Origin: Blasia pusilla
Lineage: Eukaryota
Assembly: GCA_050084515.1 (NCBI GenBank)
Contig: CM114271.1
Location: 43,710,001-43,774,000 of the forward strand
Direction of reading: 5' to 3'
DNA: 64,000 bases
A model generated the notes under the pieces. The model ran no database searches. It was not told where the DNA came from and was given only the letters and a program-made list of their open reading frames with translations. A program made the position numbers and the translations under genes. This document shows positions 10,237 through 36,802 of this stretch, piece by piece. Each line of letters opens with the position of its first letter. Position 1 is the stretch's first letter.

Positions 10237-10237
<1 letters not shown>

Positions 10238-10269: not shown

Positions 10270-10276
<7 letters not shown>

Positions 10277-12187: not shown

Positions 12188-14601
12188 TTATTTAGTATCT
12201 TGAACAAGGGATTTCTCCAGTGGAACCACTGAGTTATAGTGTTCCCCAAGCCCAAAGGCATGCCTGTGGTACGACACTCTGAGACTTGGATTTACCTCAG
12301 ATCCATCTTCCTGAATGTCTCCTTTATACTCCTTACCCATCTGCACATCAGGTAAAGCGGCAGAGAAAACAATGATATGCTTCTTTAGAGCATGAGATAA
12401 AGCCCCCAATTCCAGCTGCCCTCCCCACGCTGCTGTTGATTCAACCTCCTTACAGTATATCTCAAGCTTTGCCTCCAAGGTCACATTACTGTTTTCGCCT
12501 TCACTAGTCTCCGCCTCAATGAAGGGCATGAAGTCCTCTCCATGAGCCCGCATGTAATTAGCAGCTAATGATCTAAGTTCTTGATATGGATGTTGTACAA
12601 GTACTGGATGCAAAGCTAGCTGATCCTCTACTGCCCGATATAGACAGTGTCCATCAGATTTTATTTCCTTCAGAGTGAATCCCAGAGGTGCTAGCTTTGC
12701 CTGCAACTGCTGATCCTCCAGAACTCGCAGACTCACGACATTATTTTGTTCTTCCTGCAATGGTACACAAATATAAATAAATAAATAAATGTAGTAAACA
12801 GAACTCACCAATGAGAAGCACATCCTGGTATTTCCATCAGCACTAGGCCTAAATTAAATGATCAGGTCTTGAGACTTCATACTTGTATTCTTTGCTCTCG
12901 TTCAGCCTCCTGCTGAGCTCTTTTGTCTCTCCATTTCTGCCCTTTGGAAGGCCTGCTTGGATTACTGGTTCCATTTGCTGTGACGCCAGCTATTGCTTTC
13001 ACCTTCACCTCTATGCTGTTGGCCTCTTTCTCATCAACAGGTATACCCAAGGATGCCAGTTCTTTCACATGCCTAGCTTTTAATTTGATGTCGAGTCTCG
13101 AAACCTCCTCTTCCGCAAGCTTTTTCTTCGCCTTCTGCTCAGCTTTGCTACCCTTAGCAGCAGCTTTCTTCATAGCAATCTCCTTGTTTTGCAGTTCTTT
13201 AATCTCTTTCCTGCAATCAACACGCATGAACTTCAGATATGACGGATTCCTAGTCATACTCAAGTTGCAGATCTATCTTCAGAATGGTTGATGTGTAAAG
13301 AGTTTATTGGGTAGCTCTGCAACTACACCACACGGTACTATCGGTAATCATGTACATAATATATTCTCACCGTTTCGCTTCTTTCAACCTGACTGCTTCA
13401 TCCATGAGTTGAATGGGCGATGTCTATGGATATCAACATCCTACAAACTGACATGTTTATGAAATGATAGAGACTCAGTTGCCCCAGAGGCTAAGAGATT
13501 CGAACAAAGCAGCCCATCATGTGGATTTACCCTAATTGCAGTTTTGCCAACTCAATTTGGATTACTTTCATTTCGTTTTTGAGGGAAATGGGAAGTCATA
13601 GATAAGATGAGATAGTTACTTCGAAGCACCGAAGTTTCTGATCTCTTGGATGACAAGCGGGTACAAAAGTGGACCCAAATCAAGGGTAGAAACGACTACA
13701 TAGTAAACCTCCGGCCTCAGCGTACAATCCCAACTGAAGGAGGTAGTTGACAAGCAACGAATTTGACAGAAGTCGGAGAAACGGGAGTGGGATGACTTGG
13801 AGTGGACGCTCGGAAGACAGCACATTGGAAGCAGGTTTCCAGCTCGTTATCCATGCGAGAAAATACCAGTACGCGTCATCCAAACGGCTGATCCCCAGCT
13901 AGCTATTCATAGATTTGTGAGAGCTCTAAGTCCAATAAGCGTCCAGTTTCACGAGACCTACTTCGCTATCACGTCAAACTTAATTTCCAAAAGAAAATAC
14001 GCTTATACGAAAGAAGACTACAGCTGCTTGATATTGCAACGAAAAGATAACCAGGGCTTAATAGAGGCGGCTTTGATCATTCCAAATTTCAGGAGTAACG
14101 GTCCAAATTAGGTTTCTATTAGGATCCCCTTGGTGGATCAGGGCTGGCAGTTCAAACAATGTCCATATGAAAGACTGGTGGCTTTTATCACTGCGACGCG
14201 CACCAGAGTGCTCCATTCCTTCGAAACTCCCATTCCCAGGTCAGCATGGTGTAACATCTTATTCTTCGAGCAACCCGAAAGCAGCGAAAGGAGCAACCTC
14301 GCGGCAAGCAGCAAAGAACAGAAGCCAAGCGGATCGAAAGCATCGGCCAAACATCCCAAACGAAACGCTATTCCTGCGAAAAGAGACGACACACAGGGAA
14401 AAAAACGAAGCACTCAAGGGGGATGGGGCACAAGGACAGGACAGGACAGTACTGGTGACGTGCAAGCATTTCCGACCGCGTCTCCTTGCTGGCACCTCCA
14501 TCTCCATTTCCATTTGTCCCCGCAACCATACTATCACTAGACCCTCCTGCCGCCGCCGCTGCAGGTGCCGCTGAAGCTTCTCTCTCAGTGTCCTCCATCA
14601 C
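12188..14601 (-). CDS. OTU5: OTU-domain deubiquitinase, OTUD6B/plant OTU5-like; 3 exons (14601-14453, 13210-12883, 12754-12188)
   Basis: Exons splice in frame at GT-AG sites: [38 protein letters not shown], then the OTU core [19 protein letters not shown] and [16 protein letters not shown]. Confidence 0.9.
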
Positions 14602-15158
14602 TCATACCCTTGGCTTCAGCGCATTCTTCTCAAATCCCCTCCCTCCCTCGTTCCTCAGAACCAATTTCCCTCTCCTCTCTCCTTTACCAACAAACACATG
14701 AATACAACAACTCCTCCTTTCCTCTCCCCTCCTCTCTCTCTCTCTCTCTGTCTCTGAGAGGTCTTTGGGCGTTGCGTTCCTGCGCTACCACACTGGAACC
14801 GGAACAGAACAGCCCGTGGAGCGGAGCTGGTGATGGGCGTGCCGGGGCTACCGGGCCACCGGCAGCAGCCCGCGGCCGGGGAACGCGGTTTGCTCGCTCG
14901 TTCGTTCGTTCCCTGGGGGGATGGACGGACGCCTGTCCTACGGAGGAACCGAGAATCTCAAAATGGCGAGCGTACATCGATGGAATCCGTCCGTTCACCC
15001 CCCGCTTCATCTATGTCGTCTGCATGATGCATGATGATAATATAGGAGTAGGAAGGATAAATATACGATAAAGATATTATTACGGGCCATAGCCACGTCT
15101 AATTAAATGGTCACATCTGGCTAATTTAGAAAAATGGACTCGTCCGTATTCTCCATTA

Positions 15159-15187
15159 GTTTGTGCATGGCACGAGCACTGACTAGT
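15159..15187 (+). mobile_element. Possible Helitron 3' terminus
   Basis: Imperfect hairpin GTTTGTGC-ATG-GCACGAGC followed by ACTGA-CTAG|T, resembling the Helitron hairpin+CTRR end; the 5' end was not located. Confidence 0.3.
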
Positions 15188-15947
15188 GTTTTTAACGTTA
15201 AGAGCGTCGAGAGGAAGAGACGGAATTTGTTTCGTGCGTGAGAGTGTGCAAGCCCATGCAATTTTTTAGGAGAATGGATATGTTGGAGCCCATGGGAATT
15301 TTGGTGGTGTTTAGGGTTTAGGGTATAGCATGGGAGAGTGTCGCAGTTGCATGGAGTTTTCACTAGCCTTGTACGGAGTGTTTGTGTTGCATGGGAGTGT
15401 GTCCAGATCCTTGGAGTTCTTGAGACGTGGAGAGCGTGTTGGAACGGATTGAATATTTTAGACCCACGGTCGATGGAGTTTTTTCCTACCCTTATGTGGA
15501 GCATATGTGATGTTAGAGAGTTTTTCCACGCTAATGTCAAGACACATGGGGGTGTGTCCAAGTTGACTAGTTTACAACCCGTGCTATGTATGGGAATACT
15601 AATCATGCTTCTCAAAATTTCCAAAAAACTCTTGCCTCCCCTCTACCACGCGTCAATGAGGTAGGTGTTTGAAAATTAAGAATTCATCCTCCCTCAATAG
15701 TATAGATGGAGTTCTATCTACCCTTGGATGGAGCATGTACGTTCCATGGGAGTGTGTCCAAATCAATGGAATTCGAGGCGAATCGAGAAAGTGGAAGATC
15801 TTATGATGAAAGGACCTTCATTGCTAACCATATTTGTCACTTACTTGATATCCAAGTGTATACAAGCCAATCGAATTTTTGGGGGCTTGTTAGGGATGTG
15901 GGAGACATTGGTGTTTGAGGGGTTTCTTTCCTAATCATAAATCTCTT

Positions 15948-16470
15948 CACTTAGCCAATGTTGTTTATTTTATTGTTGGGGTTAGTTTTGGGTATCTTGT
16001 TTTTGTTTCATTTCGGCTAGTTATGGTCCTTAACGTATTTGACATTTTCAATCTCTCTTGGTTTTGATCAAATTTAATTTTCCTGTCCTATTTTCTCCAC
16101 AATGACCTTTCTTGAGGTTGATTTCAATTTTGTTTCATTTCATTTTTACTCATAATTACTATTTTGTGGGAATGTGATTTTATGTATTCAAATGAGGAAA
16201 TGATCATTACATAATTTTCCTCACCTAGCTAATGTTATGTATGTTATGGTTGGAGTTGGTTTAGGGGTTCTTGTTTTTGTTTCATTTTGGCTAATTATGA
16301 TCTTTGACATACTTGACATTTTTAGTCTCTCTTGGCTTTGACCAAATTGAATTTCCCCATCCTCTTCCTCCACAATAACCTTTCTTGAGGTTCATTTCAT
16401 TTTTAGTGATCATTGCTATTTTGTAAGAACATGACTTTATATATTCAAATGAGGAAATGATCTTTACATG
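15948..16470. repeat. Diverged tandem duplication of a ~250-270 bp AT-rich unit (~15948-16213 and ~16222-16470)
   Basis: Shared blocks such as TCTTGTTTTTGTTTCATTT, CCTTTCTTGAGGTT and TATTCAAATGAGGAAATGATC occur in both units. Confidence 0.75.
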
Positions 16471-16787
16471 AATGGATCCAAATAGGGATAGTTGTTGAAG
16501 GCATATTCATCATTGGGATACCTAATTAATTAAAGATAATTATTGAGCAATCATCCAATTGAGGAAAGACACATCTATTATTTGGTCACAACATGCTATA
16601 ATAATAATAAGAACATATTATATTTGGACTAGGGTTAGAGTTATAATATATCTATACTTTTGGGATTTATGTGATTATTGGATTGTATCTTTGTTATGAG
16701 TGGTTGGTTAAGTTTGGCATCCAGTCATTTTTGGGATTCACATTTCCAAAAAAGAAAAAATTGGAACAAATGACATGTGGACTTGGT

Positions 16788-16788
<1 letters not shown>

Positions 16789-16832
<44 letters not shown>
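16789..16832. repeat. (GA)n microsatellite
   Basis: Direct reading. Confidence 0.9.
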
Positions 16833-16837
<5 letters not shown>

Positions 16838-18619
16838 AAGGGACCTAGGATGTTAGAGTTCAAATTCCCTTAGGATGGAGGATGGATGTGACTTTATGAT
16901 CACTCAATGAAGGCTACATATAGTTCCACATGCGTCTAACTTAATTGTAACACCCACATCGTATCATGATGTAGGTGTTGATTTCAACCATATAAGATTT
17001 AGATATATTATTGCAGAGATTGATGTTGATACTATGATTACTTGAGGTGCTATTAGAATAACTGAGCCATAAAAAGATGGGATTGAGTAAGTCTCAAAAG
17101 TGGGGATAGACGGGAAACAAGCCTTGGTTTGCTGAAGGTTAATATTGTTGAGGCAATTTACATATTATCAATGGTGCCCCAAAAATCAATAGCGGAGCAA
17201 AGGCATCAATATGATGAGGAGTCATAGGCAAATCCTATGTAATCTTAAGTTGATCCAATGTTGAGTACGATGTTGTGGATGGCCACTATAGTATGTAAGA
17301 CTCAAATGTTTCTCATAGACTTGGAAGTACTTGAAGTTGAGCCATTTGAGGTATGTCATCTAGCTACCATGCTTTGTGAACATAGAGAGGTTATTGCCTC
17401 TCATATATAGGTCATTTGGGAGGAGGTGATGGACTTCTCTCCAAGAATGTATTGGAGATGTCGCCTAGTGGCTCACGGTAGGCTATGACTATCTTGTTGG
17501 TGGGTACGCCAACTACCTAGACTCATGATAGAGAAAACCCTCGGGGAGCTGACTATTACTTAGTGGCCTAAAATATGTATATGCACAAGTCACCATCCAG
17601 GATAAGGTAATAAACTTTGTTATGTGGATTCTACAATAAGCACATATATCTTATCTAGCAAGAATACAGTTTCCAAGGGTAGATGTTCATCCTTGCATGG
17701 AATGGTCCAAAGCTAGAACATTTGGAGACTTTGCATCATAGGATATGACCACATTAAACATCAAATGGTGAAGAGGTTTCCAAACTCTGATATGATGCTT
17801 ATGAGTATTATCTTTCAGTTCCTCTAGTATTTATTTAGAAGTTTGTTTTATATGTTAATTTGGCAAGCAAGAATTTCAATCATTTCCAAGCAAAGGTAAA
17901 TATATATTGAGAATACTAGAGGTTGTGTATATAGATGTTTGGACAACATCTCAATCTAATTTGATTGGTAGTGAGTAGTTTAAAACTTTTGTTGAAAAAT
18001 TCTCTAGATGAATAGGAATAAATTTCACGACATCAAATTCATAAGTATTTGACACATTCCATAATTTTAAGAATCTCTTAAAGAATAAATTTGGATATTA
18101 TATTCTTAAATGTAGATCAAATGGAGGAGGCAAGCTAATCTCTAGCAAGTTTGACGTTTTGCTACAACAACATAGCATCACATCTCTAATGGCAAGTTAA
18201 TTGTATTTCTACTTGAAAGCATAATGGAATAGAAGAGAGGAAGTATCAATACATACCATAAACAGAGAGGATTATTGTTGAATGAGAAAAGTGTGTCAAA
18301 GTTGTATTGGGAAGGATGTCACGTCTTTTAGGATAGATCGGTGAGATCTAGTAGAGCGCCTTCATGAATAGTGGAGGACAGGCTCAGTAGGTTGAGGATA
18401 ACTTGTTGAGGCCCCAAGAAACCTGAGAGAGCAAGTTTCCTTTCCGCTCATTTGGAGCCATATTGAGGCACTTACTATTTTAGGGAAGTAATATTTTGAG
18501 TATATGATCAACTTTCTATTTTTGGTAGTTGGCCCTTGACCTCCTAGATCAGGTCAAGAGCCAAGGAGGTGACTTGGGAGCATAGGTTACCATGGAGAGA
18601 GCTTGGGAGAGGGGAGGGG

Positions 18620-19360
18620 TGTCGTGCGCATATATATCGCTACACAACATACATCGCTGGTCACATCTACACCACACAACACCGATCTTCCCCACACATG
18701 GGTCGATCCACACATGTACAAAAATCAACTCATACATATACATGGAGATCACACAACAAAAATAAAGAGTAGTAAAAAAAGGCACACCCGGTCTAAAACT
18801 CCACTCCTCAATCTACATTGACATATTGAGCCTCGTCCACCCTGTGCTATCAAGGAATCCGGACGCTAGCACCCTAGTCCTATCTCACACACATACAAGG
18901 GAGGTGCTCCAACGGCCCAACATGAGAAAGATGGCTTAGGAAAGCCATCTTCGTCTCTTATATAGGGTTGGAAAGAGCCAAAAGGCTCTTTCCCTAAAAA
19001 TAGCCCTCTCCTTGGTAACCTACGCGCACAGGTTACCAAGGGCGGGTAACCAGGTCAACAAGTCATCCGGTTGTGAAAGACCTCAACATGAAAGTTGGCA
19101 AAAAACGACGTTCCTGACACAATGGACCTATCCTCAACCTCATCTGACACCGTGGGACAAAGTTACACTCAAGATAGTTTCCTGGCTCATGCGCCCTATC
19201 CACGATAGATCTCGGCCTATCTGCTACTCAGATGTGACAGCTGTTGTGCGCATACATATCGCTACATAACATACATCGCTGGTCACATCTACACCACATA
19301 ACACCAATCTTCCCCACACACGGGTTGATCCACACATGTACAAAAATAAACTCATACATA
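18620..19360 (-). repeat. 3' repeat block of element A: B1 (19360-19242) - GC - A2 (19239-18758) - 19-nt filler - B2 (18738-18620)
   Basis: 19242-19360 aligns with 18620-18738 (both 119 bp); 18758-19239 aligns with 28265-28742. Confidence 0.9.
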
Positions 19361-19436
19361 CGCCCCCCTAGCTGGCAGTTGGATCCCCCCAACTCCAGAT
19401 AGAAAATATCACATCTCTCTAACATGACCTACTACC

Positions 19437-19580
19437 CTATACACATCTCGGACACATCCATCGTCCTGTGGGAACCACATCAAGAGGGGGGGTCAGACAT
19501 GATATATGCCACCCTCAAGAACAATCATCACATACCAACATGGTGGCTGCACCCCTCGCAGATCCGCACAACATACACCT
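19437..19580 (-). other. PHD finger at the C-terminus of element A integrase
   Basis: CMLCGSARGAATMLVCDDCS*GWHISCLTPPLDVVPTGRWMCPRC = C4-H-C3 with the conserved W before the last CxxC. Confidence 0.85.
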
Positions 19581-21302
19581 CAAGCCTACAGGTATCACTG
19601 CCAAGCTCAGATCCATTGTCCCATCTACATTCGGAAGATGACATGGCGCACAATTGCGCACATCATCCTTCCAAACCATACCATCTCGTTCCTCCAACAT
19701 GAGGACTCCGGTCAGTAATACCTCGCGCACACGTAGGATCGCGGCGGCGGTAAAGATGACATCTAGCGTCGTGGGTGCCGCCTGCTGTAAATACACGTAA
19801 TCTCCAAGATGAAACCTCCTAATCCTTGGACGATAACCTCCTCCACGAATGGTCACGTACCTCAATGTATCTCTATGGTGGGCAATAGCTAAGTTCTCAA
19901 AGGCCATAGGCATAACTCTACGAAAAACTTCTGCCCTCTGAGAACATGTTTGTACCCACACATCTGGATCATCAAGATCTAACATCTCCGCCATGTCACG
20001 TCAAATCGCTGCAGGTAAATGTGGCTCTCTGCCAAAGAGCAAAAAGTACGGTGAAAATGACGCCAAGGATGCCTGCCGACTAAAGCGATAACCCATAGCC
20101 AACCATGGCAAGTGTAGGTCCCACTCCCTCAACTGTCCCCGTTGCAAGCCATACTTGCTCAATCATTTCTTCACCGTCTGTACCACTCTCTCCGCCAACC
20201 CATCTGCCTCAAGATGATCTCTGGACGTGGTGCAGTGATCTATCAGCACCTGATCACACAAGGCCTGAAACTCTCCCCTGAACTCGGTACCCTGGTCAGT
20301 CAACACCTCCGCCGGTGCACCAAAGTGACTAAGCACACGATCTAGAAACGCATAAGATGTTCCCTTGCTCGCCTTGTCTGGTAGTGCCACCAACTCTATC
20401 CACTTGGAGAAATACTCCACTATGACCAACACGTACCTATCATGACGCCCCGTCAATGGCAAAGGTCCCGCAAAGTCTAAACTCCACCAATAACCTAAAC
20501 CCATAATCGGCAAAAGATGTAACTGTGGGAGAATTGAAGGATGCTCGCACTGTGTCACATACCATACATCTGGCCACAAATTGCAGTACCCCAGTATGCA
20601 TGTCGCGCCACCAATACTGAACCTGGAGTAAGCTGTAAGTACGCTTTACTCCGAAATGTCCCAACTCCTCATGGGCATGTCGCACTACACGTGCTCGCTG
20701 GGAAGGATGAGGTACCACTCGTATCCTACCATCTCCCCATACCCGAAAAATATGAGTCCCCTCCCACCTGAACCTCTTGGCTATCTGTAGGATCCGATCC
20801 CGTTCCCTAGACTCACTATACTCGCAATGACGCCAGTGCGCAAGAACTCCACAACCTCCACGTCGTCATGGATATCACGACCACCTGTCGCCTCCTCACT
20901 AACCTCTGGATCCAAAGACTCATCATCCAACCCCACCACTGGAGTCATCACCAGTGGCTGACTTGCCATAGTCAACCAACAAATATAGGCAGATGCATGC
21001 CAACCGGGCACCATCTCCTCATCACTCTCTCCATGCCATCGAGCTCCTATGTCGTCTCTCTGACTCGGACATGGGTTACGACTCAACCTATCCGCATCCT
21101 GGTTCTGCCAACCTCGCGTATGAACCACCTCAAACTCATACTCCTATAGTAATAGAGCCCACATGGCAAGCTTTCCCGTAAGCTGCGGACTCAATCAACC
21201 ACCTCAACGGCTGATGATCAGTGATAAGTGTGAAAGGGTTGCCAAATAAATAGCACCTGAAATGTGCCACGGCCCACACTGCAGCCAAGCACTCTCCCTC
21301 AT

Positions 21303-21711
21303 CAAGCGGTAGATGACCAAGAGGTTAGCTGAACCAACATAAGGTCCTCTTGAAGAGGTCTTGGGTTCAACTCTCCCCTTGGACAGTGGGGGGCGGTCTC
21401 AACCCCAGGGCAGTGGCGTCCCCTACCTAGGGCATGGATGGTCCATGTTCGAGAGAGAGAGAATGCCTTGTGTGCCTTTCATGTGTGTGCCTTGACTATG
21501 CTCCCAGGTTAAAAAAAATCTGGATAAAATTCCAGACCTTCACAAAAAAAAGGAAAAAAAAAACAAAGAAACAAAAACCAAATCTCCTGAGTGAGAACCC
21601 CAAATCTAGATGTGAAGGTGCCATGTCGGATGCGATGTCAATTTCACATATGTGGAAGGGGTCCCATAAGCCAGATCGGCTTCCCGTGGACTAAAAATCT
21701 ACTCTACTCCA
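21303..21711 (+). mobile_element. tRNA-headed composite SINE inserted in the RNase H region of element A
   Basis: It splits ..YNSYE|GECL..; A-box-like TGACCAAGAGG (~21314) and B-box-like GGTTCAACTCT (21364-21374); A-rich linker; 3' tail ending in CTACT-type repeats; probable TSD CTCAT (21298-21302 / 21712-21716). Confidence 0.7.
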
Positions 21712-23244
21712 CTCATAAGAGTTGTACTTTGCCTCTGCAATGTTGTTCGATCGGCTCACGTAAGCCACAACGAACTCCCTCTCCTCGTCATCCCTCTGAG
21801 TAAGCACTACTCCTAGACCCAACATGCTCCAATCCGTATGTAACTGGAATGGGCGACCCCTAACCGATATGTGTAAAATGGGTGAGGACGTCAACCTGTC
21901 CTTGAGCTCCTGAGATGCTCGCTCCTGATCATCTCCCCACAACCAAACATGACCAAGTCTCGTCAACAAGGTCAAAGACTTTGCGATAGCACTAAAACCC
22001 TTGACATACCGTCGATAGAAGTTCGCCAGTCCAAGAAATGCTCGGACTCGACTCACATCTGTAGGGCGTGGAGTCTGCGCAATAGCCTCTACCTTCGTCT
22101 GCTGAACGCCTAACCCACTCGGGTATATGGTGTGTCCCAAGTACTCAATCAGCTCCTGAAAGAATCTGCACTTGCCTGGATGCATATGTAACTACAGTCC
22201 ATGTAACTGCAATCGCCGAAACGCCTCCTCCAAGTGTCGCTCATGCTCCTCAACCATGGAAGATAAGAATATCATCTATGTAACATCGTATAAAATCCAA
22301 GCCAGCCAGAATCCTATCCATCACTCTCTGAAACTCTGCAAGCGCGTTCTTCAACCCAAATGGTAAGAACCGCCATTGATACACGCAATCTCTCCCGAAC
22401 CGATCTATCCCCCAGAATGTTGTCTTCTCCCTGTCCTCCAACCTGATAGGAAGCTGATGATAGCCAGCACGAAGATCTAAAGTATTGAAGATCTTTGCAT
22501 GCCCTACCGCATCAAAGATCTCCTCAGGAGTAGGCATGGCGTACCGATATGACCTCGTCTCTCGGTTGATAGGACGGTAATCTCCACACATCCGCCTATC
22601 CGTCCAATTGCCATACATATCCTTCTTTTCCGGCATGATTGTGGCAGATGCGTACTCCCCATGTGATAACTCCACAAGTCCTGCCTCCAACAAGTCCTAA
22701 CTCCTGCTCTGAATCAAGGCTCACTCCATATGAGAATACCTGTAGGGTCGACAAAAGATCGGCTTATCACTAGCCAACTCAATCCGTATCCCGAGACCCT
22801 TCAGCGTACCCAAGTCTCTCATACTGAAGGCAAAACAACTGACATGCCCTCTCAGAAACCTATGAACTCGTCATCGCTCTCCTCCTATCAACTTGAGACC
22901 TCACATCATAGGCTCCCAAGTCTCCATTGTGACCTCACTCGGAGAGGACGCAACCTCCGGCTTTGGTTGCTATGTAGCAACACTAGCCACCTCCGCAACA
23001 GCCACTCCACTCTGACCTCCTACACCATACTCCACATCCGAAAAATGAACATGTGCTACTCTAGCCGCCTTCGTACTCTCTGCTCGAACGACATCCCAGG
23101 AAGTCCATGGGTGCCTATCTCTCCTCGTCTCGCCCCCAGCCAATGCTTGTACAGACCTTGTAGGCAATGGTCCAACTCCTGGATGTGACGGCATGGATGA
23201 CACTCACATCCGTCTCTGCTCAGCCATACCTAGGCTGACTATCC

Positions 23245-24200
23245 CCGTGAGACACTTGAGGTCCATCGCCTGCCCCAACACCTGTCTCCGGGATGCCTCA
23301 GTCATCCCTGGCACCGCCGTAGTACCGGTAGCGAACCCCATGGCGCGCTCGCGCTCATCTGCTGTAGGCTCCTACAATGATCCGGCCACCTCATCCCAAA
23401 TCATGCCTAGCCCTCCTTGACGAAAGGCATGAGATGCTGGGAAGCTCACCAACATAGGTAAGGTTGCCCTCAACTCCCCCATCCTATTGGCCATGGCCAA
23501 CGGTGGTCTATCATCCCGTGTCACCACATGAGATCGACGCCTTGAGCCCAAAATAGCATCCACTGTGAGATGTGGTGCTCTCTGGACTCCATCGTATGCT
23601 CAACTCAGTACCTCTGATGGTATTAGGTTCGTCCATCATAGTCGTGAACGATGGGCACGTGATCCAACTCTCGCCGCATCTAATAACACAGCAGGTCCCA
23701 ACCAAGACCTCACCTGATACACACTCGTCATCACACGTGCACGAGTGTCTCCCAACAACGGCACGTTCTCCAAGATGTACGTTGGAGAACATGTCTCACT
23801 CTCCTGCAAGTGTCGTACTACTTGCAGCATCTCCCTAAACATCCATGACCTCGGATCCTGCAATCCAAATCCTCGGCCAGCTGATGAATGACCCTGACAT
23901 GGCCATCCAGCAATCATCAAATGAAAGGTGCCAATTTTATCCAGATCCTGCGCCCCCACCAAAGAGATGTCGGTGGGTAGTGTATGCTGATATCCCCGTA
24001 CTGCAGATACCGGCAACAACTCAGGATACCTGTGGACGAATCTCGCCACGTGACGTAATGATACTCGCCGCGCGGTCTTATCTCTCTCCACATAAAGGTA
24101 TTGATGTACCCGTATGCCCGCCTGCAATATTGCAGCCAATCCGGTGCTAATCCCTCTGAAGAGATCTAACACCCTCCTATGGGCACTGCCACACAACGGG
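23245..24200 (-). pseudogene. C5 cytosine DNA methyltransferase domain inside element A pol, between protease and RT
   Basis: Motif I VLDLFRGISTG, II YLYVE, IV IAGWPCQGHS (catalytic PC), VI ILENV, VIII HRSRL, IX ERERAMGF..GTT and X RRQVLGQAMD, in canonical order. Confidence 0.9.
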
Positions 24201-27200
24201 TGTGGTATCCAGTGGGGTCAACGTCTCCACGCCAAGAGCCCTATTGCCACGTGACTCTTGCTGCTCCGGGATAAAAGCATGACCCCACGCCTGCCTCATG
24301 AGGTTGTCGGCACTCCTATGTAGCTCTCGAGTCGTACCCCACAATGGTGAAGAGGTATCGCCAATATGGGAAGAGACACCCGCCATGGCCTGTCTCTCCG
24401 TGGGACTATCCACTACTGGGACATCCTCTGCATGTGCGTTCATCTCCAGCAACTCTCGTGGCCAGCTAACACTACTTGTGAAAGCCGCCAACGTGGTCAC
24501 AGACTCTCCTAGTGATCGACCACCTTGTCCCGCAAACTCCAAGACTGACTCATCCGGCCGTCACCTGAGAGCCATCCCGGCCGATAAGCAACGGTCTCCT
24601 CCCACAACTCAAGAATGAATCCTAGGGGATATAACACTGTACTCCCCACCAACACATCGTACAACTCAGTTGGTGTCGTAATCGCACATGTGCGCACCAT
24701 AGCACTATCCGTCTCATGCTCTGGCTGGACTCTGACAACTATCTCTTGTCGAGTCATATACTATGTGGGTGACACGCCCCCAATCGAGGTCTGTATCTGG
24801 AAGGGACAAGGCTCAATGTCGGCCTTCCGTAACCCCAACGCTAAACACGCCGCCTTCCCTAACATCAAGGGTTGCGCTCCCGAATCAAGTAGGATGCGCT
24901 GCGGGTGGTATACTTTCCCTGTTGGACTAACCAAGCAAAATACTCAAGCTCGGTTATGTTATCCAGTGATACTACTCCACGTGTCACCACTGCTCGCTCT
25001 ATGGCCGGTCGAGCTGGCATATCTACCAACTTCGCCGCTGCCGCATGCCATGACTCGGTGGGGAACGTCCCGAGCACCGGCTCTGAGGGCAAGTCCACCA
25101 CCTCCTCAACTACCTCTGAACAAGAAGCAGTCATCTCTCCATGCTCACACAACATGGCGGCCAACCGGAACACCTCAGCTGGTCCAACTCCCAACGTCGC
25201 CAACTCTATGGCGGAAAATAGTGGAGTCTGACTTACTCTGGTGGCCACCTCCAACACTATGGTCGACACTGACTCCACTCGAGCCGGCATAGGAGTTGTC
25301 ACTCCAACTCCTCGTGAGGTCGACATAGGTACCTGAGCTACAGGCACCGCTGGTCGTTGAGGCACCATCGCTGGTGTGTGTAGTGCCTCCGACAATGTGA
25401 ATGACTGTGGAACCCTGGCCTGCCGCCCATCGGTCCCCTCTGGTGGGTCAATCTCAACTCCACCTCTTGATGGCTCGGTGCCTCTCGCAGCACCCGGAGT
25501 CACCATTGCAGGTGCCTCAACCTGGGCTGCACTAAACATAAATCCCATACTGGCCAGATCCTCACCCGGGTTAGGGTAAGAGATAGAAGCTAGAGTCACA
25601 CTAGCTGCTCGCAGCTCCGTGCCTTCCCTAAGCTGCATCATCATCATGGCAGCAATCCTCTGCTCCAACTGATCGATACGTGAGAGAAGTGTCGGCTCTG
25701 GTGCTCCTGCTCCATCTCCTCTGGTTGGTGGTGGTCCTCTACCACCACGTCCAGGAAGGACTCCCCGACCTCCTCCAGGATGACCGCCCCTAGGCCCTCG
25801 GCCTACCTCTGGACGTGCCCCTCGGCGAAGGTCAAAACATCTATCCCGAGTGTGACCATATCTGTGGCAATAGTCACATTGGTGCTGTGGTGGGGCCATC
25901 CTCCGTGGCTCCTCTGAGCAATCGGAGGCGCTGGTGGTCCTCTCCCATGCTGTGGGCAGTCTCTCTACCTATGGGACCCTCCACACGTCCAACAAGACCA
26001 CATCGGTCCCTACTGGGCAACATATGTAGGTACGGGTCGTTGCCTCATAGGCTCACAGTACCCACCCTGCTCTATAGGCACACTGGCTTGCTCCCGTGGT
26101 ACTGGTGCTCGCTGTGGCACTTGTGGGGCCACCGTTGCTCGTGGACCCGTCGACTCTCGAGAAAATCCAGCGGTCACTACTTGCTCCTCACTCATGTTGA
26201 GCTCAATACGCTTAGACAACTCAAAGACCACCTTCAATGTGGGCTTTGCTGTGTGAATCAACACCGCATCTCGGACTCTCTTCCGTAGTTCTCAGTCCAG
26301 AACCTCGTACCAATACTAGAGTGACTGCGCCTCAGTCACTCCATACGTAGCAATGATCAGCCTGCTCATGCGCGTGAATGCCTCTCTCAGACTCTCACCC
26401 GATCGTCGCTGAAAATCCTATAGACTCTTTAGCTTGTCGGTGCGTATGCCCTGGTAGCTCTTCCCCAACTGTCGGAAGAACTCCACCGTGGGGCTGAAGC
26501 TGGGTGGCCCTCTACCACCAGAGGTCTCTGCCACATCGCATGTCTCACTGCCCTCCTCTCCATCTAATCTCCGAGCTGATGGTGTGGGTCTCTATCCTCT
26601 CACAATCCCATCATATGCCTCGCGACCACTAGTAGACACATACCCTGGAGCCCAATACATCCTCCAGGCATCGATCTCTATTGAATATACTGATAAAAAC
26701 TCCATGTAGTCATCCATCGGAGGACGCTCCAAGTGGTGGAACAACCCCTTCCATGCCATGAAAGGGTTGAATCATGTCGGGGATATCTCCTAGAAGTCAC
26801 ATCACGTGTTGAACTCCTGGATAAAATCATCTAAGTCGATGGTGCCCACTGCACACGAGAAACGACGCATGCCCCGATGGCCCATGTCGTCCATCTCCTG
26901 CCAAGTACTATTGTCTCTTTCTGCGATCTCGTCACCAGACCCAGTGTTTAGTCATGACGATCCAGCCACAGATGGATGTCGAGGTAGCTCCTCAGTGATA
27001 ACCCCTTGGCATCTCACTCCACTCCGTGTCACACCACTACTACTGCTTGCACTACCCCATTCTTCCGAACCCTGGAAGAACGCCGTGATGACAAACCCTG
27101 TCTCACCCGCTCAAGCACTCAGACTCATCGAGAGCCTCCCACACGCCTCACTAGCTCACCTATGCTAACATCAATCTCGTGATGACATACCCGGCCTCAC

Positions 27201-28250
27201 GCACACTCAACACTCGGGCTCACCATGAGCCTCCCAACTGACTCACCTAACGTAGCGACACTCTCTAGGGTCATACACGCAACCCCTACTCGGCAACCGC
27301 CGTATATCCACCAACATGCTACACATGAAAAGAATCTACACTCGTCACCATCACTGCACCCACCTAGCACCAGCTACTACCCGATACCCAGCACTCTCAA
27401 TCACACACGACAAATGCGGGAAAAGGGACTCGAATGGGTAACCTGATCACGCCCTCCAACCTGCTGCACCATCAACATGCACTCCTCCACGTGATATGGC
27501 AACCTCCGCAACGCAACGCTCTCCTCGACCAACACGTCGATCCTCCCGTCAACAGATGCGGACAACCTATCGGCATCATGCGCACTGCCCCTCAACTCTC
27601 ACAACGCCCTGTCGCTCCCCAAAAACATCATGTCGCGCAAACCTCTCCGTCCATCCCCACACGCGGCATGTAACCTGACTCACCCTGGTCGGCTCCCAAC
27701 CATGTCTTCCCTTTTGACTACGTCCAACTTTACCACGTCACTCCCGCCAACGGTGGTACCATGTCGGACTGCGCTACCACGTTCAGCCCCTGCAACTCCA
27801 CCACATCGGGTCCTACCATGTTGGAGGGGGGAAAACCTGGCCCGCGGCCCTATGCGGCCCCCTTGGACCCTAAATGCGGGGAGAAAAGGGGGGGGGACGT
27901 CCAGCCCGTGGCCTGTTAGCGCCCGTCGCCCTACCCTAGCCTTCGCAACCTAACCTAGCCGTCTTTACTTGACAGCCCCCCCGTCGGCTGCAAGACCCAA
28001 ACCTGCCCTTTTCTTCTCTCTCCCGACATCCTCACTCGTGTACACCCGCCGCCCCACCACACACTACACTCGGCTGCTATCCCGCGTCAATCTGTACCAG
28101 CAAAATCTGAGAAAAATGGACAATGCTTCCGCCCACGGCCTTTTGAACACAAAAATGACAAATACGACGCCAACCAACGTCTCCACGGGCTCCCGACCAA
28201 GGCAACTCGCTTGTCTACTTGCAAACAACAAATTCCCACTAGCCCCCGAA

Positions 28251-28470
28251 CATCTTTCTCATGTAAAAATAAAGAGTAGTTAAAATGGCACACCCGGCCT
28301 AAAACTCCACTCCTCAATCTACATCGACATATCGAGCCTCGTCCACCCTGTGCTATCAAGGAATCCGGACGCTAGCACCCTAGTCCTATCTCACACACAT
28401 ACAAGGGAGGTGCTCCAACGGCCCAACATGAGAAAGATGGCTTAGGAAATCCATCTTCCTTTCTTATATA
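28251..28470 (-). promoter_or_regulatory. Element A promoter and self-priming site: TATATAA (28470-28464), predicted transcript 5' end (~28439) and complementary PBS (28264-28251)
   Basis: 28426-28439 ACATGAGAAAGATG is the exact reverse complement of 28251-28264 CATCTTTCTCATGT, which directly abuts A1. Confidence 0.7.
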
Positions 28471-28746
28471 GGGTTGGGAAGAGCCAAAAGGCTCTTCCCC
28501 TAAAAATAGCCCTTTCCTTGGTAACTTGCGCATAGGTTACCAGGGGCAGGTGACCTAATCAACAAGTCACCCGGTTGTGAAAGACCTCAACATGAAAGTT
28601 GTCAGAAACAATGTTCCTGACACAATGGACCTATCCTCAACCTCATCCGACACCGTGAGACAAAGTTACACTCAAGATAGTTTGTTGGCTCCTACGCCCT
28701 ATCCACGATAGATCTCGGCCTATCGGCTACTCAGATGTGACAGGGG

Positions 28747-28968
28747 TATACCTCAAGGAGAGAAAGCTTGAGAGCTCATTCTCTCTTTGTTGGACCTCCT
28801 GGCACGAGGCGGCGGAGCTATGGTCCCTTGCCTTGTGAGTGTAACCCAAGCCTTTCATTAGGAGAGTGGGTTTGGTTTGACATTGAGAGACACATGTGAG
28901 AGTGCGCACATGTGAGAACTATGGTGTTGTAAGAGAGATTAGATCTTATTTTACAAAGAGAGAATGAG
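28747..28968 (+). promoter_or_regulatory. Element B TATA-like box (28747), predicted transcript 5' end (~28775) and complementary PBS (28953-28968)
   Basis: CTCATTCTCTCTTTGT (28775-28790) is the exact reverse complement of ACAAAGAGAGAATGAG (28953-28968), which directly follows A1. Confidence 0.7.
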
Positions 28969-30610
28969 TGAGTGAGAGAGCTTCATAAGGGATCTCGTTG
29001 GTTGCTCAATGTTTGGTGCAGGTTGGGGGACCGTGTTCCCCCTTCATGGCTCATGGGAGTGCTCACCGGAGCAAGAGTCGTGCGAGTTTGCTGTTTTGCT
29101 TTGCTGATTTTTTGTAAGGTAGAGTGGCACGCGGAAGCGCTGCCCAATTTTCGATAGGAATTGAGTATTGGGGTGGATTGCTCCATGCCGCTGCTCTCGG
29201 GAGCACCATGTAGCTTGCTGATTTGTGTTCTCGCAGGTTTTACATTTTTGTTGGGAGAAAACAACGCGGAAGCGCTGCCAAATTTTGTGTAGGAGAAAGA
29301 GACATTGGGCTTTACAAAAATCCCCGTAAATTTTTACTAAAATGTTCGATTCCAAATATTTTTTAACATTGTTGTAGATCGTGAAGCCTTGCACGCTGTG
29401 CAAAAAATAGTGTGTAATTTAGAGTTGCGAGAAAAAAAGTTATGGTCAATCTTGCAAAGTTGCCATTGCTAGGCAATTTTTAGGGTTAAATTTTTCAAAC
29501 CCTAAACCAGCCGCCGGGCCGGTGGTGACTGTCTCTGTCAACGGTCAACCGTCACTATTGACGGAAACTATCACCATCAATGGTCAACCGTCATCTTCTA
29601 CGGTCAACCTTCACCGTCAACGATCCACCGTCCATCGTCGGCCATTGCCGCCGCCTAGCGCTGCTCAGAGCCGCGTTCGGCCGTTGTCCACCCTTTGGTT
29701 GCCGTTGCGGCCATTACGGAGTGGAGGGTCTTCCATCATTGATTCTCTGACTTGCACCGCCACCACGTACTTTGATTTGGCCCCCAGCGTCATCGTAATT
29801 TCGTCATCAACCAGTGATGGCAGGTGACCTCGGGTTATGGTGTTTGAGTTTTCATTTCATGTTGCTATGTTGTGATTGGTAGCCGCTCGACAACGATCGA
29901 GTACTGTGTCATGACGCCCATAGCCGCAACGCACCGCCGATTTCCGTGCCTCTTGTGGCCGCAACGCACCGTCTCGATCGCGGAGCCGCTCCTTCAGTAA
30001 GGTGTATACCGTGTGAATTGATGATTGAGGAGGGTAGGCCGCCAAGTGCCGCACCTCATTTCCAAGTGCCGTGTCGTTTGTAGCCGTTCCATGGTGCCTG
30101 TGCTGCATCCGACCGCTGAACCTGCACCGCACATCGAGTAGGTTTGAGCAGCGTTAGTACGAGAGGAGTACGACTTGTTGATTTAAGGAGTTATCTTCAC
30201 CACCGAGTTGGGGTCAAGATTTTCCGAGGAGCGACATGGACATTATTGTCAGGTTATCCATTCTAGTCTCTTACATTGCACGTGTGAGGGATTTCCAAGT
30301 ATTAGGAAGTTATTTGGGATATTGTGTTTCGTGTTGATGCTAGGAGCATCGATGATGTATGGGTTTAGGGGACATAGACCTATGTGGGATATCCAGAGTT
30401 GAGGATGGTCTATCAATGAGACGATAGATCAGTTGATTTGCCACACCACGGTGCTTGTTGCCGCACAGCACACGTCTTAGTGAGAGAGTGTAGATTGAGT
30501 GCCGCATGTTTAGTTTGAAAGGTTGAGGGATTACTCGCGAGATTGAGAGTGATCGTGTGAGAGGGGCACAAGGGCCATCACGGCGTTCTTTCAGGATTTT
30601 GAGAGGCAAG

Positions 30611-30725
30611 GTAGAGTAGAGTAGATTTTTAGTCCACGGGAAGCCGATCTGGCTTATGGGACCCCTTCCACATATGTGAAATTGACATCGCATCCGACAT
30701 GGCACCTTCACATCTAGATTTGGGG
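30611..30725 (-). mobile_element. 5'-truncated copy of the 21303-21711 SINE (3' tail only) at the start of element B gag
   Basis: Essentially identical reverse complement of ~21597-21708, including the CTACT tail. Confidence 0.85.
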
Positions 30726-33700
30726 TATACAACGTTTACAACGTGGAACGATATGTTCCAACATTTAGAGGGGGCGCCTATGGACGATTACCATGAGTTC
30801 TCCCACATATATGCCCTGGAGATTGAGGCATGGCGACTCTACTATAACCCACACTATGTGTCATGGACGAAGCCGTTCCTACATGAGGAGGAGGAGTCAA
30901 GAGAGGCTGATTCTTTTTCCACTAGTGATGTTTTAGGAGGGGTCACTCGCACTGGAGCAGTTACACTGTCTAGTCGGGTTCGTCCCAGGTTCAACCCCGT
31001 GGTTGAGTTCTTCGCTGAGTTGAGGGTGAGCTACCAAGGGGTACGGACGGAGAAGTTGCGGAGCATCCATGACTTCCAGAGGTGCTCGGTTGAGAGTTTG
31101 CGTGAGGCTTACACTCGCTTGCGCCGGTTGATCAACGTCACTCAGGGGGTGACAAAGGCTCAGGCTATTCAGTCATGGTACGCGATGTTGGACTGGACCC
31201 TGAGGACACGGGTACGGGAGGGGGTGCTTCTTATGAACACCTCCCCTACATTGCGAGATGTTCTTAGGACCCCCGAGAACATTGAGCACAATATGGCGGA
31301 GGAGAGCGTAGCCACCATGGGTTCTCGGCGAGAGCAGTCACCATTGTCTGCACCACTTGTGCAGCAACGTGGACTCGGAGATAGGTCCGCTTTGGGGCTC
31401 GACTGAGGAGCTTTGACACTTAGCCATTGAGCATGTGCAGACCGCGTGGAGCGAGACGTTTGCACTAGAGTGTGACTGGTGAGAGGAACCCCAGGTAGGC
31501 AAGAGTGCTGCTATGACCCCTTTGGATACCACCCCGATTGTGTGGTGCATCCCAGAGAAGGGTATTCGGATGTTGGATCTCTTTGGAGGGATCAACACTG
31601 GGTTAGTTGTTGTTTTGCACGCTGTAGTACGCGTGCAGCAATACCTGTATGTGGAGATTGATGATGTTGCGAGGCGCACTTCACTTCACCATGTGGCACT
31701 GTTAAGACTCCATTTTCCCGACTTGTTGTCTGTATCCGCCATGCACGGTTACTAGAGTTCCCTACCGAGGGACATTTCATTGTTGGGGGCGCAAGACTTG
31801 GAGCGGTTAGGGACCGTAGACTTGGTCATTGCTGGTTGGCCATGTAAGGGCCAATCGAGTGTTGGATGAGGTAGCGGGTTAGTTGACACTTGGTCCATGT
31901 TGTTTTGGGAGATGATGCGGATCTTGCGCCATTTACAGGAGCATCAACCTCGTTCTCCACCATACATTTTGGAGAATATGCCGATTTTGGGCGATTCGAG
32001 GTCCCACGTGGTGATGAGTGCACATGAGGTGCGCGCATGAATCGGCTCGGCAGTGTTTTTCTAGAGCACACCGCCCGCATCTTTGGTAGAGCAACTTGGT
32101 ACCACATGAGGTGTTGCGGAGGGCTTATGCAAGAGTGGAGTGTCCCTCCCATTTGTTGGTGGATTCTATATTGGATCTGGGCCGTTGATCATAGGCAATG
32201 AGGCACGATGATTGACGACCGTTGATTGTGGTCAACAGGATTGGCATGCCACGAGCAGCCTTTCCCACATTCATGAGTTTTCCCGCTTCCTATGCATTCA
32301 AGGAGGCCGGACCTCGCTTGGTTTGGGATGACCAGGTACAGAGGTTGGTGGAGCCCAATGCCGATGAGTGAGAGCAAGCGATGGGATTCCCTAGAGGAGT
32401 GACGGCAGTACCATCACTATCGGAGGCATCATGACATCATGTCTTGGGTTAGATGATGGACGTGAACTGCTTGACATGGATTTTCAGCCTAGAAGTAGCT
32501 GAGCAATGTCGTTTGAGGATGCGACAGATCAGAAAAGTTGCCTTGGTGAGCCCCATGCCTACCGAGACGGTTGAGGAAATGGTTGGGGGCGAGACCCGAG
32601 GAGATCGACACACCAGGGGTGATTGGGAGAGACACCCTTGGATTTCTTGGGATGTTTTGCAGGTACGCCAAGAGTTGATAGCCACAGCATTGAGCGTGGT
32701 TCTGGGTACTGCACGTGGAGATGAGAGTTCTATTGTCCGAGACAAGGTTGCACCATAGCAACCACCGATATCCGCACCAAAGACTCCTACCGTAGTCACG
32801 ATGGAGACTTGGGAGCCATATATGGGACCTAAGTTGATAGGAGGAGAGCGGCGTCAGATACACCAGTTCCTTAGGAGTTATAGGAGTTGTTTTGCATTTA
32901 GTATGTATGATTTGGGTACTCTGAAGGGTCCAAGGATCCGCATTGAGTTATCGAGTGACACGCCAATCTTTCAACGATCCTACAGGTACAGTGACATGGA
33001 GAGGGCTCTGATTTAGAGTAAGAGCCAAGACTTGGTCGGAGAAGGACTAGTAGAGATGTCGCATGGGGAGTATGCATCTGCCATTGTCATGTCCGCCAAG
33101 AAGGATGTGCATGGCAACGGGACGGATAGGCGGATGTGTGGAGATTACCGACCTATCAATCGACAGACGAAGTTCGATAGGTATACTATGCCCACCCTTG
33201 AGGAGATCTTTGATGCGATTGGGCATGCAAAAGTCTTCAAATTCATTGGATTTACGAGTCGGATACCATCAGCTGCCTATCAGATTGGAGGAGAGGCAGA
33301 AGCCGGCATTTTGGGGCATCGATCCTCATAGGAAGGATTGTTTGTACCAGTGGCAGTTCTTACCATTTGGGTTAAAGAACGCCCCGGCTGAGTTTCAGAG
33401 GGTCATGGATAGGATCTTGGCAGGTCTGGATTTTGCTAGAAGTAATATTGATGACATCATAATCTTAAGCGCCACGGTTGAGGAGCATGAGCGACATCTC
33501 GAGGAGATATTTCGACGATTGCAATAACATGAGCTGAAGCTACATCTAGGCAAGTGCAAGTTCTTCTACAACCAAATTGAGTACTTGGGTCATACGATAT
33601 ACCCAGGGGGCCTTGGTGTGCAACAGACGAAGGTAGAGGCTATTTCACGCATTCCACGCCCTACAGATGTGAGTCGAGGTCGTGCATACATGGGATTGGA

Positions 33701-35850: not shown

Positions 35851-36030
35851 AGTGGGTAGTTCTACATTCTGACTTGTGTCTATGATATGGATGACAAGAA
35901 GGTGACTAACGATGGGGCCACATGAGCACCCGGCCTTCTTGCTCTAAGCGTTTGAGAGATGTACGTCATGGTAGGTAGGGAAAGATGGCTATCTGGAGTT
36001 AGAGAGACCTAACCACTAGTTAGAGGGATG

Positions 36031-36802
36031 ATTGGAGATATTTTGGTACTTTTTGTCTCGTTGTTTGGATGCCATGAATTAGCATGAGATCATGTGTGTT
36101 TGTGTGTCTGTTCGGTGACAGCGATGTATGTTGTGTAGCAATGTGTATGCGCACGATAACTATCACGTCTTTTAGGATAGATCGGTGAGATCTAGTAGAG
36201 CGTCTTCGTGAGTAGTGGCGGATAGGCTCAGTAGGTTGAGGATGACCTGTTGAGGCCGCCCAAGAAATTTGAGAGAGCAGGTTTCCTTTCGGCTCATTTG
36301 GAGCCATATTGAGGCACTTCCTATTTTAGGGAATTAACATTTTGAGTATACGATCGACTTTCTTTTTTTGGTAATTGACCCTTGATCTCCTACATCAGGT
36401 CAAGAGCGAAGGAGGTGACTTGGGAGCATAGGTTACCATGGAGAGAGCTTGGGAGAGGGGAGGGGTATACCTGAAGGAGAAAGAACTTGAGAGCTCATTC
36501 TCTTTTTGTTGAAATTCTTGGCACGAGGCGACGGAGCTATGGTCCTTTATCTTGTGAGTGTAATCCAAGCCTCTCATTAGGAGAATGGATTTGGTTTGAC
36601 ATTGAGAGATACATATGAAATTGCACACATGTGAGAACTATGGTGTTGTGAGAGAAATTCGATTTTATTTTAATTGGAAATATTTTAGAACTTCTTGTCT
36701 CGTTGTTTGGATGTCATGAATTAGCATGAAATCGTGCGTATCTGTGTGTGTATGTTCGATGACAACGATGTATGTTATGTATCGATGTGTATGCGCACGA
36801 CA
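36031..36802 (+). repeat. 3' repeat block of element B: B1 (36031-36158) - AC - A2 (36161-36671) - B2 (36673-36802)
   Basis: B1 and B2 align along their length; A2 aligns with 18317-18619 + 28747-28952 and with 55521-56021. Confidence 0.9.

Follow-up and report, generated by a model that had tools for sequence, protein, structure and literature searches.

A DNMT3-type cytosine methyltransferase domain in decayed copies of a high-copy Ty3/gypsy-type retrotransposon family of the liverwort Blasia pusilla

The window analysed here is a stretch of 64,000 nucleotides of the Blasia pusilla genome (assembly GCA_050084515.1, contig CM114271.1, positions 43,710,001 to 43,774,000 of the forward strand). 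It contains three copies, named A, B and C, of a family of Ty3/gypsy-type retrotransposons with a C5 cytosine methyltransferase (DNMT) domain. The copies were defined by self-blastn of the window and by alignment of their junctions against uninterrupted copies. The DNMT segment of A is part of a decayed high-copy Ty3/gypsy-type element, and B, which lies beside it, belongs to a sister subfamily and is decayed as well. The coding order of the family is gag, aspartic protease, DNMT, in-frame TAG, reverse transcriptase (RT), RNase H, integrase and PHD finger, and the repeats are laid out as A1-coding-B1-A2-B2 in A and B and partially so in C. The features of the three copies are given below with their positions in the window, and in brackets the means by which they were placed.

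18620-28742, minus strand: element A, a decayed full-length copy of 10,123 base pairs (bp) (junctions, termini, self-blastn)
28265-28742, minus strand: 5' repeat A1 of A, 92.75% identical to A2 at 18758-19240 (self-blastn)
24958-26894, minus strand: gag of A, collinear with residues 1-615 of the Marchantia protein P0153 (tblastn)
24545-24955, minus strand: aspartic protease of A, 61% identical to P0153 residues 615-752 (tblastn)
23216-24172, minus strand: DNMT domain of A, a DNMT3-type C5 cytosine methyltransferase of 319 codons (six-frame translation of 23100-24400, motifs, PF00145)
22970-22972, minus strand: in-frame TAG of A, then CAA CCA, between DNMT and RT; proposed leaky stop
22256-22918, minus strand: reverse transcriptase of A, RVT_1 (Pfam, tblastn)
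20814-22275, minus strand: RNase H region of A, broken by a 414-bp insertion at 21298-21711 (Pfam, tblastn)
19443-20706, minus strand: integrase of A, with an H2C2 zinc domain at 20706-20545, an rve core at 20492-20223 and a C-terminal PHD finger at 19577-19443 (Pfam)
18620-19360, minus strand: 3' block of A, with B1 at 19242-19360, A2 at 18758-19240 and B2 at 18620-18738 (self-blastn, termini)
18317-36802, plus strand: element B, interrupted by the nested A and 8,359 bp long without it (self-blastn, junctions)
31570-32506, plus strand: DNMT domain of B (motifs, PF00145)
32756-32758, plus strand: in-frame TAG of B, then CAA CCA
32789-35844, plus strand: RT, RNase H, integrase and PHD finger (35710-35844) of B (Pfam, tblastn)
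55521-60259, plus strand: element C, a deletion derivative of 4,739 bp with the 4-bp duplication AACG (self-blastn, termini)

The A domain starts at 24172 with VLDLFRGISTG and ends at 23216 with SLGMAEQ, on the minus strand. VLDLFRGISTG constitutes motif I and is followed by YVE; motif IV is IAGWPCQG (23914-23891), motif VI is YILENVP (23779-23759), motif VIII is AHRSRL, motif IX is ADERERAMGF (23362-23333) and motif X is RRQVLGQAMD. This order, I, IV, VI, VIII, IX, X, is the ordinary, unpermuted one. The corresponding sequences of B are IAGWPCKG for motif IV (31828-31851) and YILENMP for motif VI (31963-31983). A metagenome scan returned only two loci: L001, which is 65% identical and nearly intact (6810 bases), and L002, which ends inside the domain. 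The profile check proposed in an earlier reading of this DNA, made without database searches (the sequence-only reading), was positive: PF00145 scores 29.7 bits in A and likewise in B, against a Pfam gathering score of 22 bits, and 45.9 bits in the intact relative L001. Searching 1.84 billion representative proteins with phmmer gave 2351 matches at E ≤ 1e-3, 204 of them at E ≤ 1e-30, and the domain match is therefore not due to chance. All motifs with their catalytic residues are found in A, and B carries the replacements Q to K in motif IV, V to M in motif VI and R to H in motif VIII. The A domain contains three in-frame stops (codons 23638-23636, 23602-23600 and 23374-23372) and a frameshift just upstream of motif I, between 24168 and 24214. 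That of B contains 10 stops, 6 uncovered positions and a frameshift near 32045-32061. Neither of these two copies, as distinct from the whole family, has a reading frame able to give an enzyme. The motif series that the sequence-only reading described for both elements is thus complete, but in a broken frame, and the position that it gave for the domain, between protease and RT, holds for A (protease at 24955-24545) and not for B, from which the protease is gone.

The domain was compared with known structures. In a phmmer search of the PDB, the domain matched DNMT3A at 1.9e-7, DNMT3B and DNMT3C at about 1e-6, DRM2 at 0.01 and M.HhaI at 0.02. Structure prediction was carried out on L001 and not on the broken window copy. 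The AlphaFold model of the L001 domain, from an alignment of 28 sequences, reached a predicted local distance difference test (pLDDT) of 95 and a predicted template-modelling score (pTM) of 0.92. When this model was searched against the PDB with Foldseek, ranks 1-49 were all DNMT3A, DNMT3B or DNMT3C, with E down to 3e-19 and a template-modelling (TM) score, computed on the target, of about 0.8; sequence identity to human DNMT3 in the Foldseek alignment amounts to no more than about 21%. By its sequence and its predicted fold the domain sorts with DNMT3, which agrees with the DNMT3-like, unpermuted character read earlier from the motifs. It resembles the cellular DNMT3A, DNMT3B and DNMT3C in catalytic fold and motif order but is not accompanied by their readers: no PWWP or ADD domain was found beside the catalytic domain in Pfam scans of A, B and L001. 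It differs also from the plant DRM2, whose motif order is rearranged; a rearrangement of the DRM type, with motifs VI-X before I-IV, was not seen here. The open 193-residue open reading frame (ORF), searched in the ESM Atlas, gave only generic PF00145 clusters of phages and bacteria. A scan of IMG/VR with the domain alignment kept 80 loci, all of them phage-type methyltransferases at 25-43% over part of the domain, and no retrotransposon.

The coding parts of A and B contain RVT_1, RT_RNaseH, Integrase_H2C2 and rve in the Ty3/gypsy order, and Pfam scans of both gave no match to the tyrosine recombinase PF00589. In element orientation the copies begin with TGTCAC (TATCAC in C) and end with CGACA, and all three are bounded by 4-bp target-site duplications, which are GGGG on the plus strand for A (18616-18619 and 28743-28746) and AGGA for B (18313-18316 and 36803-36806). 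The TG...CA ends, the DDE integrase domains and the 4-bp duplications show an integrase-type insertion, like that of an ordinary long terminal repeat (LTR) element. A is nested in the 5' repeat of B: the B repeat A1 is divided into 18317-18619 and 28743-28953, and the counterparts of these two parts directly adjoin each other in C and in the 3' repeat of B. The 3' block of B is made of B1 (36031-36159), A2 (36161-36672) and B2 (36673-36802). B has no counterpart to P0153 residues 255-820, which cover the last part of gag and all of the protease. In C everything from gag to DNMT is missing (B 30002-32733 is the corresponding part), and so are the integrase end and B1; TAG CAA CCA is kept at 57110-57118 together with the Pol region. 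Repeats A1 and A2 of B are 92.1% and 87.7% identical in two parts, and those of C 93.4%; with identities of 87.7-93.4% in the three copies, the insertions are therefore old. The protease of A has the active-site stretch LLDSGAQPLMLG at 24892-24857, and in 18 of 43 relatives Pfam finds a protease at the corresponding position. The sequence-only reading had noted both a PHD finger on the integrase and 'permuted' LTRs, and both are real, the first by Pfam and the second, as split repeats, by self-blastn and termini.

Several further observations concern the repeats. The B1-A2 junction holds two extra bases (GC in A, AC in B), resembling the circle junction of two LTR ends. Reading of the junctions after repeat A1 for a primer-binding site named no tRNA match. 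About 416 of about 1,400 DNA reads skip 603 bases (joint 18757-19361), the length of one B-A unit, and a considerable fraction of the family copies therefore has only one terminal B, without the A2-B2 repetition. The 414-bp insertion in the RNase H region of A has no counterpart in most family copies, the joint 21297->21712 being found in 591 DNA reads. Of this insertion, 116 bp are 99% identical, inverted, to a stretch near the gag start of B (30611-30726), and the insertion has RNA reads from either strand as well as fully concordant loose ends at 21649 and 21699, which suggests a separate small expressed repeat.

A conserved in-frame stop codon separates DNMT from RT. TAG CAA CCA is found at the homologous place in all four DNAs (A, B, C and L001), with the same frame on both sides. 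These four DNAs represent three lineages (A, B/C and L001), between which the linker around the TAG is only about 48-50% identical in protein. L001 consists of one frame over 6.5 kb with two stops, one between protease and DNMT and one between DNMT and RT; the former aligns with a sense codon of Marchantia and is probably damage. Motif X was located in 33 relatives: 26 of them end 72-196 residues later without RT, 1 ends earlier and 6 continue into Pol. The ORF1-type proteins of Marchantia, of Calypogeia and of metagenomes end at the place of the TAG. Four gene models of Marchantia polymorpha and Sphagnum fallax (P0155, P0158, P0162 and P0193) join DNMT to RT and skip the stop-bearing linker, as if an intron had been called there; public annotation may hide the recoding site. 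The sequence UAG-CAR-YYA is described as the leaky-stop context of tobamoviruses and other plant viruses (PMC3542737), and CAA CCA fits CAR-YYA exactly in the four DNAs. Upstream of the TAG, GGTTGC can pair with GCAACC across it; this stem is invariant in the four copies and so is without covariation. From this arrangement, and by analogy with viral stops, we infer that ORF1 would encode gag-protease-DNMT and that Pol, encoding RT-RNaseH-integrase-PHD, would be reached by readthrough. The continuous polyprotein of DNMT and RT assumed by the sequence-only reading must be given up, since the TAG stands between them in the four DNAs and the DNMT lies in the gag-protease frame. As in tobamoviruses, the in-frame UAG has a CAR-YYA context and lies between an upstream product, which would be abundant, and the polymerase. 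Readthrough between gag and pol is also used by gammaretroviruses. The upstream product of tobamoviruses and gammaretroviruses is without such a methyltransferase, which the upstream product here would carry.

The closest relatives of the DNMT domain were found in Calypogeia fissa (68%), Marchantia polymorpha (many, 54-71%) and Sphagnum (43-51%), in addition to metagenome proteins. We scanned 43 close relatives and found PF00145 in 40, a protease upstream in 18, RT downstream in 5 and RT upstream in 0: in all 43, the DNMT is upstream of RT or there is no RT at all. Together with a DNA depth over the DNMT that equals that over gag (see below), this shows that the domain characterises the family and is no isolated capture, as had been claimed from the two copies of the window. 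Rates of nonsynonymous (dN) and synonymous (dS) change were estimated by the Nei-Gojobori method. Between A and B the DNMT domain has a dN of 0.325 and a dS of 2.13, giving a ratio of 0.15, and between L001 and A a dN of 0.253 with dS saturated. For comparison, the ratio is 0.05-0.17 for RT and integrase (all pairs except B vs C) and 0.33-0.40 for the DNMT-RT linker; dS was saturated in 9 of the 30 comparisons and all these ratios are rough. In 150 relatives the motif IV cysteine is kept in 146, the glutamate of ENV in 150 and the motif VIII arginines in 148 and 147; the motif I glycine is kept in 147, the motif IX glutamate in 148, the motif IX glycine in 149 and the motif X glycine in 146. 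The domain is neither absent from the family nor neutral, with a dN/dS of about 0.15, DNMT depth equal to that of gag and these residues kept in 146-150 of 150. Judged from these substitution patterns, the methyltransferase is under purifying selection across the family.

Two layouts are distinguished among the relatives. We call type I the layout of the window (protease-DNMT-RT) and type II that in which the DNMT lies between RNase H and integrase. Classed by the position of protease, RT, RNase H or integrase, 149 relatives gave 45 of type I, 71 of type II and 33 unassigned. Among 27 long proteins that were scanned, the order RT-RNase H-DNMT-integrase was found in 25, the order of the window in 1 and the DNMT alone in 1. 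Type II elements, which occur in green algae and environmental eukaryotes, share with the present family a homologous DNMT (35-45% identity) and the gypsy-type enzymes RT, RNase H and integrase; 17 of the 27 long proteins also have a PHD finger behind the integrase. What sets them apart is the DNMT, which follows RNase H and precedes the integrase, whereas in the present family it lies between protease and RT. The type II proteins that carry a species name are from Haematococcus lacustris and Monoraphidium neglectum, both green algae. In the DNMT tree, built with FastTree, one branch with a support of 99, which is a local Shimodaira-Hasegawa-like value only, parts 60 rows (48 type I and 12 unassigned) from 92 (71 type II and 21 unassigned). 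One capture followed by a move, or two captures, may account for the two layouts, as both fit this tree. Ten Marchantia proteins have end branches of 0.003-0.09 changes per site, and branches so short suggest recent amplification in Marchantia. The near-identical copies of Marchantia polymorpha, which are annotated only as hypothetical proteins, are therefore young. Some type II relatives, algal or environmental, carry an extra domain near or after the integrase, namely a PTM/DIR17-like Tudor domain in P0013 and a G-patch in P0063 (scanned) and in P0341, P0342 and P0360 (precomputed Pfam).

To estimate copy number and expression, reads of the host species, from one DNA run and three RNA runs, were matched to 11800-28200 at 85% likeness. 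The mean DNA depth of the single-copy flank 11800-17816 is about 0.49, from about 20 reads, and that of the interior of A is about 1,100. This suggests a family of roughly 2,000 copy-equivalents, a figure uncertain by perhaps a factor of 1.5. DNA depth is 1071 and 1081 in the DNMT bins, 974-1038 over gag, about 1250 over the integrase and 1489 in the RT bin. The DNMT depth thus equals that of gag and amounts to 72-86% of that of RT and integrase; most gag-bearing copies therefore also have the DNMT. Among 98,976 reads compared with A, 497 match at at least 99%, 12,655 at 95-99%, 46,798 at 90-95% and 39,026 below 90%. The RNA libraries are stranded, as the minus-strand OTU gene described below appears at a depth of 25-69 in the first-mate-plus column. 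In the three RNA runs the sense depth is 23-47 from integrase to RT and 3-10 over DNMT, protease and gag; antisense depth is 0-0.5 over the DNMT and mostly below 3 over the element. Per copy, transcription of the family is low. RNA reads show loose ends with an agreement of 1.0 at 19621, 21649 and 21699, and part of the Pol RNA signal comes from particular chimeric transcripts. Deleted copies such as C, or chimeric loci, could supply most of the family RNA. The CpG observed/expected ratio is 0.70-0.78 in the window copies and 0.57-0.63 in the host flanks. The whole 6810 bases of L001 are CpG-poor (observed/expected 0.28, TpG+CpA 1.44).

The copies lie beside intron-bearing host genes, at 1-15700 and 38300-42500. 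These comprise genes for an OTU protease, a family 35 glycosidase and FANCE, and also an RmlD-like exon.

18-470: RmlD-like exon
7753-9096, minus strand: glycoside hydrolase 35 exons
12191-12853, minus strand: OTU deubiquitinase, expressed, with the intron 13210-14451 seen in RNA
38802-40172, minus strand: FANCE-like ORF

The OTU ORF is 77% identical to that of Marchantia paleacea, 73-74% to those of two Riccia species, 69% to that of Calypogeia fissa and 59-66% to those of lycophytes, ferns, seed plants and Sphagnum. A flanking gene closest to liverworts marks the host as a liverwort and bears out the land-plant origin that had been suspected for this DNA. Elsewhere in the window we observed a pair of direct repeats, 68% identical and about 5.5 kb apart (48226-48939 and 53716-54421), an ORF with a C17orf113-type zinc finger (53834-54703, minus strand) and a 270-bp tandem duplication (15936-16469), which are probably remains of other mobile elements. 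The RNase H/integrase region of B (34259-34561) has a weak match (67%) at 43716-44018, possibly a fragment of another gypsy-type element.

The family was then compared with published elements. KnitGypsy-Dnmt3 of Klebsormidium nitens is described as a gypsy element with a DNMT3-type domain (de Mendoza et al. 2018, PMC5890265). By that description, the two have in common Ty3/gypsy coding, unrearranged DNMT3 motifs, A-coding-B-A-B repeats and streptophyte hosts, and both are under purifying selection, with a Ka/Ks below 0.2 reported in PMC5890265 and a ratio of about 0.15 here. They differ in copy number, given as few in Klebsormidium in the same paper against about 2,000 here. They differ also in coding: its authors place the DNMT in one ORF with RT and RNase H, whereas here a TAG stands between and the DNMT follows the protease. 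Readthrough of the TAG would unite DNMT and RT in one polyprotein in a minority of products. No Klebsormidium name appeared among the DNMT-domain matches, and the likeness to KnitGypsy-Dnmt3 is one of published description. The A-coding-B-A-B layout is described in PMC5890265 for DIRS elements and for the Klebsormidium gypsy element. The same source reports the SymbioDIRS-Dnmt3 class of Symbiodinium, for which de novo CG methylation was shown in yeast. It shares the DNMT3-type domain and the A-coding-B-A-B repeats but has a tyrosine recombinase, in place of which we find rve and H2C2 domains and 4-bp duplications. A DIRS-like element is ruled out for the window by the rve/H2C2 integrase, the absence of PF00589 and the 4-bp duplications of the three copies.

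As for host range, the species table of the 2018 paper contains no liverwort and no Sphagnum (PMC5890265), the accessible text of a 2025 paper (PMC12344493) cites only the 2018 work for streptophytes, and that of a May 2026 preprint lists only Symbiodiniaceae and 'streptophytes (Gypsy-DNMT3)'. Full-text literature searches, with most subscription journals outside their coverage, found no report of such elements in liverworts or mosses. The present family is a land-plant member of the Gypsy-DNMT3 kind: a known kind, found here in a host lineage new to it and with its coding parts arranged differently.

We propose the following mechanism. With the TAG in a UAG-CAR-YYA context, most ribosomes would stop there and make gag-protease-DNMT, and a minority would read on into RT-RNaseH-integrase-PHD. 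The DNMT would thus be a Gag-level and not a Pol-level product, either freed by the protease or retained on the Gag-protease precursor. The DNMT of working copies would methylate the DNA of the element itself, as new complementary DNA or as a fresh insertion, and the PHD finger of the integrase would choose the chromatin for insertion. The sequence-only reading had likewise supposed that a DNMT freed by the protease would enter the particle and could methylate the complementary DNA before it is integrated. Taken as a whole, that a gypsy-type liverwort family carries a DNMT3-type enzyme on the Gag side of a leaky stop and uses it for self-methylation seems to us reasonably probable. The extension of this proposal to liverworts and Sphagnum at large, including Marchantia polymorpha, with a recently active lineage that would make a working DNMT as the tail of its Gag-protease protein and at Gag-like level, since the leaky UAG would hold back RT and integrase, and would methylate its own new DNA, is tentative and in our view rather doubtful.

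A number of results weigh against self-methylation by a Gag-side enzyme. A and B are dead copies and make no enzyme. CpG depletion, looked for as a footprint of self-methylation, gave no consistent signal among the window copies, their flanks and L001, and with a CpG ratio above that of the host flanks the window copies do not look exceptionally CG-methylated. In all three RNA runs, depth over gag to DNMT is lower than over RT to integrase by a factor of 4-8, and full-length transcripts may be rare. The support for readthrough comes from only four DNAs of three lineages; the hexamer after the TAG also encodes Gln-Pro, and its conservation may be partly at the protein level. The DNMT of P0189 truly runs on into RT in one frame, as do those of the more distant P0190, P0191 and P0033. 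Finally, the Klebsormidium Gypsy-Dnmt3 domain is reported to have given no methylation in yeast, in an assay in which human DNMT3B also failed (PMC5890265).

The yeast result bears on a first alternative, in which the domain is kept for a non-catalytic role and binds DNA or a partner, for instance by recruiting or blocking the de novo methylation machinery of the host, as a decoy or adaptor like DNMT3L. The sole relative tested in print is the Klebsormidium domain, which gave no methylation in yeast (PMC5890265), but the failure of human DNMT3B in the same assay takes force from this argument. Moreover, the catalytic cysteine, the ENV glutamate, the motif VIII arginines and the cofactor glycines are kept in 146-150 of 150 relatives, which is not expected of a pseudo-enzyme, and we consider this role unlikely. 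An enzyme that is active in trans, on the host genome or on rival elements, and thus reshapes host methylation or silences competitors, deserves a similarly low rating. If the TAG is leaky, the DNMT would be far more abundant than RT and integrase, which fits a product acting outside the particle, and the roughly 2,000 copies fit as well. The authors of the 2018 study argue for action in cis where the DNMT shares its ORF with RT (PMC5890265), an argument that is not transferable to the layout split by a TAG.

Other explanations concern the stop codon and the domain itself. The TAG might not be a recoding signal: active copies would have one continuous frame, and the stop would be inherited damage or would be spliced out. 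The continuous frames of P0189 and of the three more distant proteins favour this, as does the small number of independent lineages, three, that were seen as DNA. Nevertheless, the same codon occurs in A, B/C and L001 although about half of the neighbouring residues differ, and L001 has just one other stop in 6.5 kb. The ORF1-type proteins of Marchantia, Calypogeia and metagenomes end there and the CARYYA context fits in four of four DNAs, so that we hold this alternative to be improbable. In contrast to the preceding alternatives, a fragment of a host DNMT3 gene lying amid transposon debris, for which the likeness to DNMT3 alone could speak, is refuted by a read depth about 2,000-fold that of the flanking host DNA and by collinearity with relatives in which a single ORF holds gag, protease and DNMT; the stretch is also inside an element bounded by target duplications, and Pfam scans found no PWWP or ADD domain.

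That a transposon should encode a cytosine methyltransferase is counter-intuitive, since transposons are silenced by cytosine methylation. Both hosts of the published cases, a dinoflagellate and a charophyte alga, are difficult experimental organisms. Marchantia polymorpha, for which transformation, genome editing and published methylomes are at hand, makes the role of such enzymes testable. Given the conserved leaky-stop layout, the enzyme would be expected in another dose and at another site: as a plentiful product on the Gag side, and no longer as a rare domain of Pol. If self-methylation by a Gag-level DNMT is true, some of the DNA methylation of land plants would be written by a transposon and not by its host.

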